Sequence record: OL960580
Strand: one strand, 5' to 3'
DNA length: 64,000 nucleotides
From: Escherichia phage vB_EcoM_SA21RB
In this document: piece by piece, positions 40,919 to 50,840 of the stretch
How the letters are laid out: each line of letters begins with the position of its first letter
Numbering within the stretch: the first letter of the stretch is position 1
Position numbers and translations under genes: made by a program
Notes under the pieces: generated by a model
The model's input: the letters and a program-made list of their open reading frames with translations, nothing else
What the model was told of the DNA's origin: nothing
The model's database searches: none

Positions 40919-41389
40919 TTAATCATGTTTCCACACCCCATCGGTATTTGACCAAAGTCGCTGATTATCTGATCCTCTCCACAGCTTTTTGGTAGGAAGA
41001 TTTTTCTCATACTTCCCATCAATAATAACATCAACATATTTAAGCATTTCTAGTTGTTTAATATCTTCAAATTTATATCCTGTCCACAACCAAATGCTTT
41101 TATTTGGATAAAGATTTTTTACTGTTTGAACAATGCAATGAACAACATCTCTGTTATCAGGATAAAGAGGGTCACCCCCAGTTATAGTTAATCCTTCTAT
41201 ATAATCATTATTTAAACATTCAATTAATTGTTCTAGTGTTTCACCAGTGAATGGAACGCCATTTCTAGCATTCCATGTTGATTTATTATAACATCCTTCA
41301 CATTTATGCAAACATCCCGTAACGAAAAGAACGACCCTGCATCCAGGGCCATTCACAAAATCACAGGGATAAAATCTATCGTAATTCAT
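40919..41389 (-). CDS. nrdG: anaerobic ribonucleotide reductase activating protein (radical SAM)
   Basis: 156 aa; CxxxCxxC-type cluster (GCLHKCEGCYN); adjacent to nrdD. Confidence 0.9.
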   Translation of the reverse strand: MNYDRFYPCDFVNGPGCRVVLFVTGCLHKCEGCYNKSTWNARNGVPFTGETLEQLIECLNNDYIEGLTITGGDPLYPDNRDVVHCIVQTVKNLYPNKSIWLWTGYKFEDIKQLEMLKYVDVIIDGKYEKNLPTKKLWRGSDNQRLWSNTDGVWKHD

Positions 41390-43203
41390 TGGTGTTTAAC
41401 CCTATGCATGATTTCTTTATTTTTGCCAAGATTAAATCCGCGTTCGTTCGGATTTCCCAAATAACCACAAGTTCTTCTTATTGTGTTCATCTTTTTAGGA
41501 TCAGTTTCTCCACAAATAGAACAAACAAATCCGTTTTCAGTAGGAGTCATTTCATGGGTACTTCCACATGTAAAACATTTATCTACTGGCATGTTAACAC
41601 CAAAATAATCTAAATGTTGTGCAGCATAATCCCATACAGCCTCAAGACCTTTTAGGTTATTTTTCATATCAGGAAGTTCAACATAAGAAATGTGACCACC
41701 TGTCGCAATGAAATGATATGGGGCTTCTCGAGAAATCTTTTCAAACGGAGTGATATTTTCTTCTACTGAAACGTGGAAACTATTAGTGTACCATCCTTTA
41801 TCAGTAACATCCTTTACACTTCCATATTTTTCGGTATCGAGTTTACAGAAGCGATAACACAAGTTTTCAGCAGGTGTAGAATACAAGCTAAAAGCAAAAC
41901 CAGTTCTTTCAGTCCACTGCTTAAGACGAGCATTCATTTTAGTTAAAATTTCCTGTCCAATATCACGACCGACAAGAATATTCAATTCGTGAATACCGAT
42001 GTATCCTAGGGACACTGAACTTCTACCATTTTTAAATAACTCAATTATGTCATCATCAGGTTTAAGACGAACCCCGAATGCACCTTCTTGGTAAAGAATA
42101 GGAGCAACAGTCGCTTTAACTCCTTTTAAGGAACTAATTCTACACATCAAAGCTTCAAAACACAAATCCATTCGTTCATTGAACAATTCAACAAATTTCT
42201 GTTCATTGAACTGTGTTCCAATATAAGAATCTAATGCAATACGAGGAAGATTCAGTGTTACAACGCCAAGATTATTACGTCCATCAAGAATTTCATTACC
42301 AGTCGAATCTTTCCATACACTCAAGAAACTGCGGCAACCCATTGGAGAAACAGGAATAGATGAACCTGTGATAGCTTTATTGTTCTTAGCCGAAATGATG
42401 TCAGGATACATTCTTTTGCTTGCGCACTCTAAAGCAAGCTGCTTAATATCATAGTTCGGATCGTCTTTATAAAGATTAACACCTTCTTCAACGAACATAA
42501 CAAGTTTAGGGAAAATAGGAGTTATCCCATCACGACCGAGACCTTTAATACGATTTTTCAGAATTGCTTTCTGAATCATTCGTTCAGTCCAGTCAGTTCC
42601 CGTACCAAATGTAATTGTTACAAAAGGCGTTTGCCCGTTTGAACTAAAGAGAGTATTTACTTCATACTCATAAGCTTGAAATGCATCGTATACGTCTTTT
42701 TCTGTTTTAGATTGGGCGTAATTCAACGCATCAGCGATTTGCCATTTTTCTGCGTCCTCAATATGTTTTGCATAGGTGCGTTTAACATAAGGAGAAAGTA
42801 CTTTATCTACATTCGCAAAAGTCGTTCCGCCATATTGGTGGGAAGCAACCTGTGCAGTAATTTGCGCCATAATTGCAGTAGCAACGCCGATTGATTTAGG
42901 AGTTTCAATCTGTGCATTACCGAGCTTAAATCCGTTCTCAAGCATTCCTTTTAAATCTACTAAACAGCAATTAGTAAATGGAAGAGCAGGGGAATAATCA
43001 ATATCGTGGAAATGGATAATTCCGCTTTCATGCGCTTTCATAATAAAAGACGGGACCATATTTTTGGCAATGTGTTTAGACACAATACCAGCCATAAGGT
43101 CCCGTTGAGTTGGAAAAACACGAGAATCTTTATTAGCATTCTCGTTTAAAAGGTCTTTATTAGTTTTATGAATTAGTCCTTCAATTTCTTTTTCAATCGT
43201 CAT
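41386..43203 (-). CDS. nrdD: anaerobic ribonucleoside-triphosphate reductase, uninterrupted
   Basis: 605 aa continuous ORF; C-terminal Zn ribbon CFTCGS...CSICG and glycyl radical region RTCGYLG. Confidence 0.95.
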   Translation of the reverse strand: MTIEKEIEGLIHKTNKDLLNENANKDSRVFPTQRDLMAGIVSKHIAKNMVPSFIMKAHESGIIHFHDIDYSPALPFTNCCLVDLKGMLENGFKLGNAQIETPKSIGVATAIMAQITAQVASHQYGGTTFANVDKVLSPYVKRTYAKHIEDAEKWQIADALNYAQSKTEKDVYDAFQAYEYEVNTLFSSNGQTPFVTITFGTGTDWTERMIQKAILKNRIKGLGRDGITPIFPKLVMFVEEGVNLYKDDPNYDIKQLALECASKRMYPDIISAKNNKAITGSSIPVSPMGCRSFLSVWKDSTGNEILDGRNNLGVVTLNLPRIALDSYIGTQFNEQKFVELFNERMDLCFEALMCRISSLKGVKATVAPILYQEGAFGVRLKPDDDIIELFKNGRSSVSLGYIGIHELNILVGRDIGQEILTKMNARLKQWTERTGFAFSLYSTPAENLCYRFCKLDTEKYGSVKDVTDKGWYTNSFHVSVEENITPFEKISREAPYHFIATGGHISYVELPDMKNNLKGLEAVWDYAAQHLDYFGVNMPVDKCFTCGSTHEMTPTENGFVCSICGETDPKKMNTIRRTCGYLGNPNERGFNLGKNKEIMHRVKHQ

Positions 43204-45515: not shown

Positions 45516-45819
45516 TTTCTTCTCGGTTAAATCGGTGTTTGCAATGACGGCATTTATAACGAAGATTACTAGTCTGCCAATGGACCAATTGAACCTGTTC
45601 AGTACCGCATTCAGGACAATTAGGAACGTTTTTAGAAGCCCTTTCACGCCGTTCAACCATAGCCATAATGGCATCCCAAGCTGGAGGTTTAAAATCTAAA
45701 TCGTCACAACCATGAATCTTTCCACGCATTTCTAAATCGTCTTCTTCACCAGCCATAATAATTTTAATTAGGCTAGAATTACTTGAAGCTGCAATGTCTT
45801 CTAATAGACGCTTTTTCAT
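45502..45819 (-). CDS. zinc-ribbon protein
   Basis: 105 aa; C-terminal CPECG...CRHCKH. Confidence 0.5.
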
Positions 45820-46745
45820 TTTAATACCTCAATAGCATTACGTAAACCATTTGCTTTGGCAGTTAAATCTTTAAGAACTTTAGTATGCTCTTCAATCTGT
45901 TTTTCAACTTCAATTAAGCGAGCATTAAGATATTCGCGTTCTTCGCTCAGGCTATCAACCTTTTCTACTTTAGGTTCTTTTACAATTGGCTTGTATGTAT
46001 TAGGGTTCTTCAGTTTAATTAGAATGCGTGAGCTGTATAACATTGAACCATTATCTTCGGTTTCGTCATACATTTCTACTACGTCCATGATTTTTAGCAT
46101 CATGCGGAGTTTATAAGACAACGAACGAATAGTTTTGTTGTGCTTATTAATTTCTCTAGCTGTCATGGTGCCGAGATTACGTGAGTAATAATAAGGAACC
46201 TGGATATTAATTAATACTGATGAACCACCTGGCATGTGTGTTACTTCATCAGCAATAACCCAGTCCTTAACATGAACTGTATTTGTACGGTCATCACCCG
46301 CGGTAAATAGTTTGCGAGCATGCTTAAAAAGCATATTCACTTGGTCATTGAATTGACAAGCAAATTTATCAGCAAATTTAGTTTCAGGAATGGTAGATAA
46401 CCAATCAGCCAAATGGGTCTTTTTAACATCGTTAACAATAGTAAATTCAACCAAATCAGTTATAGATGTCTCAGATTTAATAAAGCTCGGCTTCATAAAG
46501 TTTTTAATGTTATCGCGAGCTACAGTAGAAGATAACATACGAGAACGTTTAAACCATTGAAGCAAATTGCCCAACGAATGAGAATAAGCGTTTTGAGTAT
46601 CTTTACAGATATGATTTTCCTGGCCAACATATTGAAGGAAATCACGAAGAATATTATTGATTACTGCTCTGTGTCCGATCTGATAATTACGGTGTTTAGT
46701 AATAAGACTGTCAAAATAATCAATATAATGTTTACGAGTTTTCAT
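45816..46745 (-). CDS. coiled-coil paralogue array member 1
   Basis: 309 aa; MKTRKHYIDYF N-terminus; C-terminal coiled coil; shares architecture with the next three genes. Confidence 0.6.
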   Translation of the reverse strand: MKTRKHYIDYFDSLITKHRNYQIGHRAVINNILRDFLQYVGQENHICKDTQNAYSHSLGNLLQWFKRSRMLSSTVARDNIKNFMKPSFIKSETSITDLVEFTIVNDVKKTHLADWLSTIPETKFADKFACQFNDQVNMLFKHARKLFTAGDDRTNTVHVKDWVIADEVTHMPGGSSVLINIQVPYYYSRNLGTMTAREINKHNKTIRSLSYKLRMMLKIMDVVEMYDETEDNGSMLYSSRILIKLKNPNTYKPIVKEPKVEKVDSLSEEREYLNARLIEVEKQIEEHTKVLKDLTAKANGLRNAIEVLK

Positions 46746-46797
46746 ATTCTTCTCACTTGGTTAATGATTTATACTCCGAGCCATCCCTGGCTTTAAA

Positions 46798-47799
46798 TTA
46801 CTTAATTAACTGTAAAGCTTGTTCAAGACGATCAAGACGATTAACGGATTCTTCCCAAATCTTTTTAGCCTGCTCATATTCTTTCTGCGCTTTATTAGAA
46901 ATTTCTAGAACTTCTTTATAAGCTTTTTCTAGTGCAATAACTTCTGGACGAATTTCTACCGGTTCAGGCGAATCGTCAAGATTATCCATTAGTTCCTCAA
47001 GGGTAGTTTCTTCTTTAGGAGTATTCACAATTTCTTCACATTTTTGTTGGTAAATTTCTTTATCAGTCGGTAAATAAGCACATTTCACTTCACGAAGACT
47101 AACTACAATTTTATATCCTTCCCAACCGCATATATTCTTAAAAGGATACGTATGAATATTTTCTACTGTTTCCATACAAAGTAATGCGGTTTCTAATTGA
47201 CGAGTTATAGTGCTAGCAATTGAGAAAAATTTATTAATGTTCTTTTGGTTAGTTTCTGGTGTAAAAAATCCATAATTCACAAAAATAGATACTTTATTTT
47301 TATCAAGTTCATATTCTTTTACGATAATCATATCAGAAGCCAAAGGATGAATTTGACGATAATCGCCATAACATAATTTAGAAGCTGATTTTAGAATTTG
47401 CTTTTTGAAAAGTCTGAAATTACTAATCCAACGACGAGTAAAAATATTCTCAGGGTCTTCTTTATTATTAAGATGATAAGAATTAACATCACCGAACCAA
47501 TTATATCCTACTACATCTTTGGTTCGTTTAATTTCTTTCCCAAAATTACCAAGAATATCCCGATTAACCAAATATGAAAGAAGACGAGACTCTTTAAAGG
47601 TTTTCTTGATAACATCTTTATCTACACGACTAGAAATTTTACGAATTTCATGAATAAATTTAGTAGAAGAAACAATACCTGCATCAACACTATTGAGCCA
47701 TTGATTGATAATAGAAAGAACGCTATTTTGGCCAAACATCGGTATAGCTTTATCATCAATAACGCTATTGAATGATTTGATATATTCGTTACGAGTCAT
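46798..47799 (-). CDS. coiled-coil paralogue array member 2
   Basis: ORF track extends to 47850; ATG 47799 with GAGGAG SD gives 333 aa MTRNEYIKSF... Confidence 0.6.
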   Translation of the reverse strand: MTRNEYIKSFNSVIDDKAIPMFGQNSVLSIINQWLNSVDAGIVSSTKFIHEIRKISSRVDKDVIKKTFKESRLLSYLVNRDILGNFGKEIKRTKDVVGYNWFGDVNSYHLNNKEDPENIFTRRWISNFRLFKKQILKSASKLCYGDYRQIHPLASDMIIVKEYELDKNKVSIFVNYGFFTPETNQKNINKFFSIASTITRQLETALLCMETVENIHTYPFKNICGWEGYKIVVSLREVKCAYLPTDKEIYQQKCEEIVNTPKEETTLEELMDNLDDSPEPVEIRPEVIALEKAYKEVLEISNKAQKEYEQAKKIWEESVNRLDRLEQALQLIK

Positions 47800-47827
47800 A
47801 TTAATCTCCTCAGTAGAAAGTAAGAAC

Positions 47828-47857
47828 ATTATACCACATCCTTGTGGCAAAGTAAAC
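47828..47857 (-). promoter_or_regulatory. T4-type early promoter, near-identical to the one at 2428..2457
   Basis: attataccacatccttgtggcaaagtaaac versus attataccacatccttgtggtaaagtaaac. Confidence 0.55.
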
Positions 47858-48885
47858 TAGTTCAGTGCATTTAGTGCATTGTTCAGTTTAGAACGTTGCT
47901 TCGTGAGATTTTTGACTTTTTCTTGAGCTTTTTCTAGCATCTTTTCAGCTTCTAGCACTTCATTAGTTGCTTTAACGAGTTCATCATCTACTGCCTTGAT
48001 AGACTTCTCAATCGCATCTGCATGCCATTTTTCAACAGGTTTAAGACTCGGATTTTCAACAGGAAGAAAATTCACTTTATTGAATTTCCATGCATCCTTA
48101 TTACCTGAACTATACATCCAAAATTTAGGATCGTTTGATGAGTAATTGGATAAATTTAAATTTAAGTTATCTTGCACTTCTTGCTTTTTCTCTTGCGTGA
48201 CTTCGTCCTTTCTCAAAAAATCGTATTTAAATGAAACGATCATATCAAGTTCATACGTTGTTGTATGTTCCCAATTTCGCTCAAAACGAGGTAAAATCTT
48301 AGAATGAACTGCAGCAACAACATCCATATACTTAAATGCTTCTGTCAACTGCGATTTAAGGCATTCGCAAATTGAAAGAGAATTTTTTGTATTAGGTTTA
48401 AAGCTAATTCGTGCAGTTCTGTTATTTTCTTTTAATGGTCTTACTTCCATCTGAAGAGTATAACCATCAAATTTCAGGTTCTTTAAGTTAATATCAGAAC
48501 CTTTTAATCGACTCGCAGTTGATAAAATTTGCTTTAATTGTCTACGGAACAGAGCAATAAATCTCCATTCAATACGATAATGATTTGGATTGAAAAATCC
48601 AGATGATAAATCGACCTTACTTTGACCAACGCCTTGAACAAATAGAGGATTTTTATAATCAATAGTTTTACAGAAATCTGTGAGCTGCTCACGAGCCGTC
48701 ATTTGTGTAATATACCCTGCTTTACTAAAATTACGTATCCATTCACTGCTATTTGTATACTTAAAGTGATGAATAACATGATTAACTTTATCAGGGTCTA
48801 AATTATTTTCACACAAAAATGTCATAACATCACGAGTATAGCTGGCATTACGAACCATATCTTCAATTTGAGAACGAGTTTTCAT
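47857..48885 (-). CDS. coiled-coil paralogue array member 3
   Basis: 342 aa; MKTRSQIEDM N-terminus; central RFIALFRRQLKQILSTASRL segment. Confidence 0.6.
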   Translation of the reverse strand: MKTRSQIEDMVRNASYTRDVMTFLCENNLDPDKVNHVIHHFKYTNSSEWIRNFSKAGYITQMTAREQLTDFCKTIDYKNPLFVQGVGQSKVDLSSGFFNPNHYRIEWRFIALFRRQLKQILSTASRLKGSDINLKNLKFDGYTLQMEVRPLKENNRTARISFKPNTKNSLSICECLKSQLTEAFKYMDVVAAVHSKILPRFERNWEHTTTYELDMIVSFKYDFLRKDEVTQEKKQEVQDNLNLNLSNYSSNDPKFWMYSSGNKDAWKFNKVNFLPVENPSLKPVEKWHADAIEKSIKAVDDELVKATNEVLEAEKMLEKAQEKVKNLTKQRSKLNNALNALN

Positions 48886-48893
48886 GGTATTCC

Positions 48894-49820
48894 TTAAGAT
48901 TTAAGTAAATCGACAATTTTAATTAACTTTTCACGCTCAGATTTAGCTTTACTACTCAATCCAGATAGTCTGAAAATTTCATCGTCATATTGTTGAATAG
49001 AAATATTCAGCTCTTCAATCTGCTTATTAAAATAATCAATTTGTTCAGAATGTTTTTCGTTACTACGAACTGGTACAGGTTTTGTAGGCAATGTAGTTGA
49101 ACTGGATTCATTCGGGCGATAAATTAAAATACAACTTGAACCAATAGGGCATTTTGCACCAGATGAATATTCTAATGTTCCAGCTTCTTTTAAAACTTCA
49201 AAAGCTAAACAGAGATGATGCCCCATATTAACATAATCTGTAGAGTGAGCTCTGATGTAATAATCATCTCCACGAATACTAAATTTAAAGCATTTAAGGT
49301 CTTCTGTATTATTGGTCTTAAAAATCATTTGTTTATCTAGACCTTTAGCTAATCGAGCGCCTAATGCTAATAATCGTCGTTGATTTTCCCACAAATCTGC
49401 AATCATTTGGTCGAATGATAATTTCGGCATTAGTCGACCATAAAGGTCATATCCTTTATTATAATTACGAAGGATTTCACTCGCGTTAATACGAGACAAC
49501 GCTCCAATTTTATTAAGGGCTTTCATAATGCGATTAGATAAACTCATTCCAGATCCATTTGTTCGCTGTAAATGTTTTTCTAATCCAAATCCAATATCAA
49601 CTTTAAACTTATCTAAAATTTCAGCATGAACATCTCTGTCGATAACATTCAAATCCAAAGTTGGGTTAAATCTGTGAAAAAATTTATCTGGCTCTCCACG
49701 ACGAAGTACAGTCCATTCATTCATCATTTTTTTATTAACTAATGATTTAATTACTGCATTGACATTATTAATTACTACTGACATATTTTCCTCACTCAAT
49801 TTCAATTTTACTAAATACAC
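48894..49820 (-). CDS. coiled-coil paralogue array member 4
   Basis: 308 aa; central WENQRRLLALGARLAKGL segment; C-terminal coiled coil. Confidence 0.6.
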   Translation of the reverse strand: MYLVKLKLSEENMSVVINNVNAVIKSLVNKKMMNEWTVLRRGEPDKFFHRFNPTLDLNVIDRDVHAEILDKFKVDIGFGLEKHLQRTNGSGMSLSNRIMKALNKIGALSRINASEILRNYNKGYDLYGRLMPKLSFDQMIADLWENQRRLLALGARLAKGLDKQMIFKTNNTEDLKCFKFSIRGDDYYIRAHSTDYVNMGHHLCLAFEVLKEAGTLEYSSGAKCPIGSSCILIYRPNESSSTTLPTKPVPVRSNEKHSEQIDYFNKQIEELNISIQQYDDEIFRLSGLSSKAKSEREKLIKIVDLLKS

Positions 49821-50254: not shown

Positions 50255-50782
50255 TTATGCGAGTACCGTCTTTAACCGTTCTTCAAACTTCCGAAGAGTA
50301 TTTTGGCGTTCAGCTCTTTGCTTTTTGTAAGTTTCAATACGCTCTGAAATGAGAGAGTATCGTTCATTTACTGATTCTTTCATAAAATCAGGAATTTCAC
50401 GAGAAGCTTTAATTTCGTCAAATTTATCAATAACAGCTTGCTCTTCAGCAATTAAATTATCATACATTAAAATATCTTTCTTGATGAACTCAATATCTTC
50501 TTGAGTTACACGAGACATTTTAGATGCTTTATCCTTTTTGTACTGTTCGTTAGTATCACGAGACCAGTGTAATGTACGATTTTTATTCGTATTCTTGTAA
50601 ATTTCTACAATACCAATCTCATCAATAATAACGATCCAATTCCAACGGGATTTGTAAATTTGTCCTCCATCAACTGTGATTTCACCTCCGATTGAGATGT
50701 CGTTAAAGAACTTGCTTTGTGCTTCTGATTTAAATTTACCATCATTGTAATTTACCAGGTTGAAAATATCTTTAGCGTTCAT
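50255..50782 (-). CDS. hypothetical protein
   Basis: 175 aa; preceded by a promoter-leader cassette. Confidence 0.5.
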   Translation of the reverse strand: MNAKDIFNLVNYNDGKFKSEAQSKFFNDISIGGEITVDGGQIYKSRWNWIVIIDEIGIVEIYKNTNKNRTLHWSRDTNEQYKKDKASKMSRVTQEDIEFIKKDILMYDNLIAEEQAVIDKFDEIKASREIPDFMKESVNERYSLISERIETYKKQRAERQNTLRKFEERLKTVLA

Positions 50783-50809: not shown

Positions 50810-50840
50810 TATAGTACCATAGAGGAACAGTCTTGTAAAC
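50810..50840 (-). promoter_or_regulatory. T4-type early promoter (conserved cassette)
   Basis: minus strand GTTTAC...TGGTACTATACAACTATCAAC. Confidence 0.55.

Follow-up and report, generated by a model that had tools for sequence, protein, structure and literature searches.

Do four consecutive genes in the genome of Escherichia phage vB_EcoM_SA21RB derive from one ancestor, and what do they do for the phage? The analysed stretch (sequence record OL960580; 64,000 nucleotides, hereafter the window) carries these genes in a row on the minus strand, as read from its list of open reading frames (ORFs). An initial annotation, made from the letters alone, described them as a tandem array of diverged paralogues, proposed an exclusion or anti-defence role as an example, and assigned no function. 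Our analysis identifies the array as the nrdC.6-nrdC.5-nrdC.4-nrdC.3 block of a Tequatrovirus (T4-like) genome. Homology of nrdC.3, nrdC.4 and nrdC.5 is well supported, nrdC.6 is probably a more distant member, and nrdC.5 very probably counteracts the host defence protein Dsr1. We favor, with a probability of about 0.6, the reading that the array proteins are early, stoichiometric, multivalent binders of host immune proteins. The T4 locus and the counter-defence role of one member are already known from the literature. The apparently new element is the evidence for a single superfamily, which Pfam and PHROGs split into three families.

The assignment of the window rests on a database comparison in which the 4.8 kb around the array showed 96-97% nucleotide identity to many Tequatrovirus genomes. 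In the matching records, the named genes at this stretch are nrdC.2 to nrdC.7. T4 shows an identical arrangement of the four genes, flanked by nrdC.7 and nrdC.2, and the neighbors of the array in the window (nrdD, gp49, nrdC, nrdC.7, nrdC.8, nrdC.10, nrdC.11) agree with a T4-like locus. The gene positions and lengths first proposed hold, with a probable revision of one start codon. On the minus strand, the nrdC.3-like gene occupies 45816-46745 (309 amino acids; PF26897/phrog_1435; a paralogue of nrdC.4) and the nrdC.4-like gene 46798-47799 (333 amino acids from the ATG at 47799, MTRNEY...; phrog_1435). These are followed by the nrdC.5-like gene at 47857-48885 (342 amino acids; Pfam DUF7235, PF23882; orthologue of the T4 anti-Dsr1 factor) and the nrdC.6-like gene at 48894-49784 (296 amino acids from its ATG; PF26899/phrog_2257; the most distant family member). 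The maximal ORF of nrdC.6 begins with a GTG at 49820 and spans 48894-49820 (308 amino acids). Translation almost certainly begins instead at the ATG at 49784 (MSVVIN...), because other records annotate the start there and the homologues of Dhakavirus and Gaprivervirus begin with MSQAIN. The ATG of nrdC.4 has a GAGGAG ribosome-binding site 6 nucleotides upstream; a 350-residue ORF from a TTG was discarded as not credible, the TTG lying upstream of a promoter -10 element.

The functional evidence comes from T4. A T4 deletion mutant that had lost plating on ECOR17 was rescued by deletion of the host gene dsr1 (Srikant et al., eLife 2022, PMC9391042). On MG1655 with ECOR17 dsr1, the same mutant was rescued by nrdC.5 expressed alone from a plasmid (PMC9391042). 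Dsr1 is a SIR2-domain defence protein, that is, a sirtuin that depletes nicotinamide adenine dinucleotide (NAD+); according to a 2026 paper, its sensor shares homology with the Avs7 sensor and recognises phage major capsid proteins (PMC13581612). The nrdC.5 protein of the window very probably counteracts Dsr1 as its T4 counterpart does, because the two are 95% identical (95.0% at the amino acid level). The genes also have the same neighbors, lying between nrdC.6 and nrdC.4 in both phages, and the Pfam match is full length (427 bits to PF23882 against a cut-off of 30, residues 1-342). We therefore regard an anti-Dsr1 function for nrdC.5 as more secure than the binder reading for the array as a whole. 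The statement that no function can be assigned is out of date for this gene, and the suggested anti-defence role stands for it. For nrdC.3, nrdC.4 and nrdC.6, the suggestion leaves candidates, and we put their having an anti-defence role at slightly below even odds. They have the layout of T4 NrdC.5, and profile comparisons also match them to its central segment and C-terminal helix, but they are less than 26% identical to it, and none of the three in the window reaches the threshold of PF23882. The literature searched gave no function for nrdC.3, nrdC.4 (a note on a single-nucleotide polymorphism aside) or nrdC.6, no mechanism for nrdC.5, and no mention of the Pfam names of these families.

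Pairwise alignment gives an incomplete picture of how the four proteins are related. By BLASTP, nrdC.3 and nrdC.4 match with an E of 1e-7 (26% identity over 231 residues), and they are the only significant pair among the six possible. Four-way paralogy can hence not be supported from pairwise alignment alone. We compiled family alignments from database homologues and the syntenic genes of other genera, and compared the resulting profiles with hhalign. These comparisons link all four proteins, nrdC.6 only through a broad superfamily profile, and the initial view of the genes as diverged paralogues is borne out strongly for nrdC.3, nrdC.4 and nrdC.5 and moderately for nrdC.6 (BLASTP, hhalign, shuffles). 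The nrdC.3 and nrdC.4 profiles match at 98% (E 1e-14), and those of nrdC.4 and nrdC.5 at 73-90% (E 3e-5 local, 2e-7 global). A joint profile of nrdC.3 and nrdC.4 matches nrdC.5 at 82% (E 1e-5), placing residues 63-218 on residues 48-196. The alignments of nrdC.4 or the joint profile to nrdC.5 cover 144-280 columns. A strong direct match of nrdC.3 to nrdC.5 (88%) was rejected as an artefact of the protein P0056, a natural nrdC.5::nrdC.3 fusion included in the nrdC.3 alignment. Without this chimera, which was removed before the final hhalign runs, the direct comparison gives 10%; the link goes via nrdC.4 and the joint profile.

Family databases recognise part of this relationship. In PHROGs, nrdC.3 (E 1e-115) and nrdC.4 (E 2e-168) both fall into phrog_1435 over their full length, nrdC.5 into phrog_2351, and nrdC.6 into phrog_2257 (E 5e-152, full length). 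The Pfam labels on homologues are PF26897 for all those of nrdC.3 and nrdC.4, PF23882/DUF7235 for those of nrdC.5 and PF26899 for those of nrdC.6. When applied to 24 aligned nrdC.3/4/5 sequences, the DUF7235 model matches nine at E <= 1, while nrdC.5 orthologues account for seven. The same alignment contains several shared blocks: M-x-T-R at the N-terminus, F-K-x-S-R-x-L-S-x-x-V-A-R-D-x-L-x-x-F-G-K, F-x-x-R-F-x-x-x-F-x-x-Q-x-x-x-I-L-K-x-A-x-K, and Q-L-x-x-A-L-x-x-M-D-x-V-E. It also contains a K-P-[VI] element preceding the last helix and a terminal L-x-x-A-L-x-x-L-K. The MKTR- or MTRN-like start noted initially in three of the proteins corresponds to the first block: M-(K)-T-R begins three of the four, and T3, R4 and F71 are invariant across nrdC.3/4/5. 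Nine columns are nearly invariant; eight of them hold hydrophobic residues or proline, and the ninth is K315. Among all ORFs of the window, hmmsearch and single-sequence hhalign found no further family members.

The position of nrdC.6 depends on more distant comparisons. Against any single family, its profile scores below 4% (E 0.01-0.1). We therefore consider the alternative that only nrdC.3, nrdC.4 and nrdC.5 are homologous, nrdC.6 being an unrelated protein that resembles them by chance in size and C-terminal coiled coil. This would fit the non-significant BLASTP and hhalign results against each of the three alone, the separate family given to nrdC.6 by Pfam and PHROGs, and its lack of the N-terminal M-x-T-R motif. 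It would also fit a database-wide profile search with nrdC.3/4/5, which found no nrdC.6-type representative. Against it stands a 33-sequence superfamily profile, which takes in a Klebsiella-phage protein and the distant members P0227, P0233, P0234, P0235 and P0222 from the exhaustive search described below. The nrdC.6 family matches this profile at 88.5% (E 2.7e-6, score 49.6) over 74 columns, whereas shuffling the columns or blocks of the nrdC.6 alignment 80 times gave scores of 13-16 on average and 24 at most. Residues 81-155 of nrdC.6 are always placed on residues 44-137 of nrdC.5, including in the weaker comparisons. When a hidden Markov model of the superfamily was run on all window ORFs with hmmsearch, nrdC.6 was the best non-member, with collinear matches at the central motif and the C-terminal helix. 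Its predicted secondary structure elements follow the same order as those of nrdC.5, and the gene adjoins other members in four genera. Chance resemblance thus looks improbable. Support for placing nrdC.6 in the superfamily is moderate; it probably belongs to the family as a more distant member.

For the nrdC.6 C-terminus, the T4 records disagree. The reference AF158101 (L008:3967-4794) gives a protein of 275 amino acids, the last block of which is 27% identical and unlike that of all other phages, and the newer assembly OZ209057 (L005:1522-2412) gives 296 amino acids. A frameshift or a sequencing difference in the older entry probably accounts for this discrepancy; L008 also contains at least one ambiguous base.

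The members share a predicted layout of variable N-terminal helices, a conserved helical segment ('KQIL..AS+L'), a small two-layer alpha/beta core, a flexible linker and a coiled-coil helix. Conservation across genera and heptad periodicity bear out the common architecture proposed at the outset, and the four central strings quoted then are exactly the stretch superposed by the profile alignments. In nrdC.5, the central segment lies at 48475-48756 (minus strand; residues 44-137), was aligned in every profile comparison and is the most conserved block across genera. It has the pattern F-x-K-[AS]-[GR]-x-[LI]-[ST]...A-R-[DE]-x-L-x-x-F ... F-R-x-x-x-K-x-I-L-x-x-A-S-[KR]-L. The matching segment of nrdC.6 identified by hhalign lies at 49320-49544 (minus strand; residues 81-155 in the 296-residue numbering) and includes NQRRLLALGARLAKG; its columns are invariant across genera (alignments A1, A5).

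Predicted coiled-coil helices close all four proteins. They are encoded on the minus strand at 45819-45965 in nrdC.3 (residues 261-309; 100% conserved between both alleles of this gene), 46801-46956 in nrdC.4 (residues 282-333; at 82%, the most conserved block of that family across genera) and 47860-48039 in nrdC.5 (residues 283-342; heptad a/d score 0.83). The corresponding helical or coiled-coil region of nrdC.6 is at 48897-49067 (residues 240-296, same numbering), with helices at 246-272 and 278-295 in an AlphaFold2 (AF2) model and many residues invariant across genera. All four C-termini have hydrophobic a/d heptad periodicity, and end in A-x-x-x-L-K. As a coiled coil we counted a/d periodicity over at least four heptads in a continuous helix, which is present in each; compared with composition shuffles, only nrdC.5 and nrdC.6 exceed expectation, at the ~2-4% level.

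An AF2 model of nrdC.5, made from the nrdC.3/4/5 alignment, is usable, with a predicted local distance difference test score (pLDDT) of 71.9 and a predicted template modeling score of 0.59. Its N-terminal part contains helices within residues 4-69, three short strands and the motif helices at 100-128. The middle consists of a hairpin (144-162), a helix (169-185), a second hairpin (190-219) and a disordered linker (230-284), and the C-terminus is a single 56-residue helix (286-341; pLDDT 77-91). Compared with viral predicted structures, the model matches full-length uncharacterised proteins of 300-370 amino acids (E 1e-8 to 1e-3) from T4-like phages of Klebsiella, Erwinia, Acinetobacter, Yersinia and Aeromonas. 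The matches of the nrdC.5 and nrdC.6 models in BFVD show no convincing overlap, the nrdC.6 model having a pLDDT of 54. PDB sequence searches found no sequence-related solved structure.

Two independent searches also matched the nrdC.5 model to numerous proteins of the tail terminator and tail completion type, with E values of 5e-3 to 5e-2 in the Foldseek search of BFVD. One could suppose from this that the alpha/beta core imitates a neck or tail protein of the virion and serves as an early, non-activating decoy that occupies host pattern-recognition sensors ahead of the late structural proteins. Avs sensors are reported to recognise the tail terminator, head-tail connector and tail tube by shape, and the Dsr1 sensor is of the Avs7 type (PMC13581612). 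That same sensor, however, is reported to recognise major capsid proteins rather than tail terminators (PMC13581612), and confidence in the model is moderate (pLDDT 72). Sequence similarity to tail proteins such as lambda gpU, T5 p142, SPP1 gp17-like proteins or DUF3168 is lacking, and the fold match is non-specific. Unlike tail terminators, the nrdC proteins have additional N-terminal helical and C-terminal coiled-coil regions and are products of early, non-virion genes. We treat the resemblance as a lead rather than a finding, and the decoy idea has a very slim chance of being correct. A broader version of it would have the helical scaffold and coiled coil present a variable core that mimics a neck or tail protein, forming modular early 'sensor blockers' that pre-occupy Dsr1 and Avs-type sensors, with each paralogue and nrdC.3 allele tuned to a different receptor. 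This too is a long shot.

The distribution of the family is narrow. When 1.84 billion representative proteins were searched exhaustively with a profile, only 19 clusters matched at E <= 1e-3, and every match that could be traced to a genome belongs to a T4-like phage. A comparison of the locus across T-even genomes, as the initial annotation had proposed, showed that the array order recurs beyond Tequatrovirus. The window and T4 carry nrdC.6, nrdC.5, nrdC.4 and nrdC.3, and Mosigvirus (HX01) has nrdC.6-like, nrdC.5-like and nrdC.3-like genes. Dhakavirus (Bp7) and Gaprivervirus (MN01) have nrdC.6-like, nrdC.5-like and nrdC.4-like genes with a small membrane protein after the first, and Jiaodavirus (Klebsiella phages) has one member at the syntenic site. 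The inserted gene encodes a predicted membrane protein of 62-71 amino acids (L001:4855-5043 in Bp7, L002:4826-5041 in MN01); the membrane protein of Tequatrovirus, nrdC.7, is a different one and is encoded immediately upstream of nrdC.6. Because the gene order recurs in Mosigvirus, Dhakavirus and Gaprivervirus, the duplications are old and predate these genera. We thus consider the array ancient, with its order kept across genera of the Tevenvirinae.

These results do not agree with the initial description of a tandem diversifying duplication. The paralogues are less than 26% identical to one another, their order is shared by several genera, and ratios of nonsynonymous to synonymous substitution rates (dN/dS) are low. 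As whole-gene estimates from the single pair of window and T4, these ratios are 0.15-0.27 for the four array genes, compared with 0.02-0.05 for nrdC, gp49 and nrdC.11. They point to relaxed yet purifying selection on the array, and positive selection was rejected at this level, although selection at particular sites could still be present. Amino acid identity between window and T4 is 97% for nrdC.4, 94.5% for nrdC.6 and 63% for nrdC.3 (L008:7001-7927 in T4), the last with a synonymous rate (dS) of ~1.07. In nrdC.3, the first ~60 residues are 80-95% identical and the last ~40 identical, and residues ~60-280 are 30-65% identical; the genes flanking it are 91-99% identical. This gene is best described as two deep alleles that differ only in the central domain, the T4-type allele (60-80% identity) being found in ~287 phage records. 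Across genera, the central motif and C-terminal helix are best conserved, and variation is greatest in the beta core and in the N-terminal ~60 residues.

Variation in the array takes the form of gene loss, fusion, pseudogenisation and nrdC.3 allele replacement, not of raised dN/dS. By tblastn over phage records, nrdC.6 is present in 741, nrdC.3 in 653, nrdC.5 in 581 and nrdC.4 in 553. Phage LYE-01 (L009) has lost nrdC.4 altogether. In Escherichia phage Ec_YwIITB1 (L010:3438-4279), nrdC.5 is split into ORFs of 180 and 86 amino acids with the first 61 residues gone, and is a probable pseudogene. Salmonella phage Manna (L003:5215-6252) has the nrdC.6 body fused to the nrdC.4 linker and coiled coil, with '...QQYDDEI' joined to 'VNTPKEE...' and nrdC.5 deleted. 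In P0056, nrdC.5 residues ~147-275 are joined to nrdC.3 from 'NMLFKHARKLF' onward, with nrdC.4 deleted. The fusion junctions in the array lie at microhomologies of 2-3 residues, and their positions are not equivalent. A further protein, P0232, carries an unrelated 120-residue N-terminus on the nrdC.5 coiled coil. This N-terminus was not found in the window or the phage collection, and the loci examined afterwards held one ordinary and one split nrdC.5; P0232 may be a metagenomic fusion or a mis-assembly.

The array proteins are non-essential, probably early-transcribed proteins of 33-40 kDa. Their timing is indicated by promoters as well as by the description of nrdC.5 as an early gene (PMC9391042). 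The early promoter noted within the array was recovered at 47857-47828 (minus strand), in the spacer between nrdC.5 and nrdC.4, where it lies directly after the nrdC.5 stop codon. Its sequence, aGTTTACt-N14-gtggTATAAT, is near the T4 early consensus (10/12 with extended TG in the consensus scan), and the record of phage SA20RB has a 'T4 early promoter' feature at the equivalent place. It probably drives nrdC.4 and nrdC.3. A candidate at 50811-50839 (minus strand; 9/12 with TG), upstream of nrdC.8, likewise has an annotated T4 early promoter as its SA20RB equivalent and probably drives nrdC.8, nrdC.7, nrdC.6 and nrdC.5.

Multivalent binding is the simplest model, because the proteins have no enzyme signature, are early and dispensable, and have a predicted oligomerising helix. 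Searches of Pfam, NCBIfam, PADLOC and the PDB sequences gave no enzyme or known-domain match above threshold. The only match to the PADLOC defence-system models was that of nrdC.4 to BrxC, at 14 bits and of the coiled-coil type. The family members are unlikely to be enzymes, because no catalytic-type residues are kept family-wide and the conserved positions are mostly hydrophobic. We propose that the proteins would be produced early, ahead of the late structural proteins by which such sensors are triggered, and that nrdC.5 would bind and neutralise Dsr1 stoichiometrically by way of its coiled coil. The variable N-terminal region and beta core may provide target specificity, and the conserved central helices and coiled coil may provide a common scaffold and oligomerisation, and with it avidity. 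The nrdC.3, nrdC.4 and nrdC.6 proteins may act in the same way on further immune proteins of the host or on other variants of Dsr1.

Several observations weigh against this proposal. The experimental link to defence is limited to nrdC.5 and is genetic in kind, so that the effect could be indirect. The whole-gene dN/dS values lack an arms-race signature, and the conserved order and identity of the paralogues across genera would also fit conserved non-immune functions. A role in binding nucleic acids would likewise be compatible with the basic character of three of the four proteins. On the family side, the points to be set against it are the lone significant BLASTP pair, the short nrdC.6 alignment, and an nrdC.6 model that, although its elements follow the order of nrdC.5, is too poor for fold assignment. 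In single-sequence hhalign, moreover, nrdC.6 is the best non-member only narrowly (24.7 vs 20.9), a marginal result.

Some of these observations lead to a different interpretation, in which the family would consist of host-takeover or nucleic-acid-binding regulators acting in transcription or in DNA or RNA handling. The rescue by nrdC.5 on Dsr1 cells would then be indirect, possibly through altered timing or amount of the trigger or through altered NAD+ metabolism. Consistent with this are isoelectric points (pI) of 9.26, 6.92, 9.21 and 9.17 (~9.2 for three of the four proteins), purifying selection with order and identity kept across genera, and a weak RNA polymerase alpha-like similarity. 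Residues 30-86 of nrdC.3 also weakly match the N-terminal SAM-like (core-binding) domain of tyrosine recombinases (PF02899, E 0.08, 13.7 bits against a cut-off of 22.3; NCBIfam XerD-type, E 0.0014). This match spans the conserved helix pair S-R-x-L-S-x-x-V-A-R-D-x-[IL]-x-x-F. It is, however, far below the curated cut-offs and occurs in three of the 24 members, all of the nrdC.3 type; an assignment as PHL or integrase SAM-like was rejected, the matches being confined to nrdC.3 types. The genes are also dispensable and frequently lost, and plasmid-expressed nrdC.5 alone sufficed for rescue (PMC9391042). A regulatory role is thus unlikely, and we retain the binder reading. The pI values also rule out acidic DNA-mimic anti-restriction proteins of the Ocr/Arn type (pI ~4).

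Known counter-defence systems provide partial parallels. The DSAD1 protein of Bacillus phages, by analogy only, inhibits the SIR2-domain, NAD+-depleting abortive-infection protein DSR2, reportedly by binding (PMC11087589); it differs in that its target senses the tail tube and in belonging to a different phage group. The T4 island genes tifA, dmd, adfA/61.2 and ipIII are likewise non-essential accessory genes in a hyperplastic region, and laboratory deletions of such genes cost host range (PMC9391042). They are, however, single, unrelated and small proteins, whereas the nrdC array consists of four homologous proteins of ~300 amino acids with a shared coiled coil and a fixed order across genera.

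Some features around the array deserve mention for users of database records. Hundreds of GenBank and UniRef entries name the homologues of nrdC.3-nrdC.8 'thioredoxin'. None of the window's nrdC.3-nrdC.6 has a thioredoxin-family Pfam match, and the label appears to have been carried over from the name of the neighboring nrdC gene. The nrdC.8 product (50255-50782) ends in a long charged helical stretch (…ERIETYKKQRAERQNTLRKFEERLKTVLA); hmmsearch with the superfamily profile gave no match to it (E 5). In the window, nrdD (41386-43203) is an uninterrupted ORF of 605 amino acids with gp49 directly after it, and T4 nrdD (L008:10475-13325) carries the I-TevII intron. The small genes between gp49 and nrdC are unlike the 49.1-49.3 set of T4.

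Few phage countermeasures to sirtuin (NAD+-depleting) immunity are known, and the T4 nrdC.5 gene is one of them. The advance made here is incremental: the locus had been described before, and any function ascribed to three of its four genes is inferred. If nrdC.3, nrdC.4 and nrdC.6 are true paralogues, they would provide three concrete counter-defence candidates in the best-studied phage. The shared scaffold, if real, could be dissected by domain swaps between the variable core and the conserved coiled coil. In addition, the family profile detects single or multiple copies in other genera of the Tevenvirinae.

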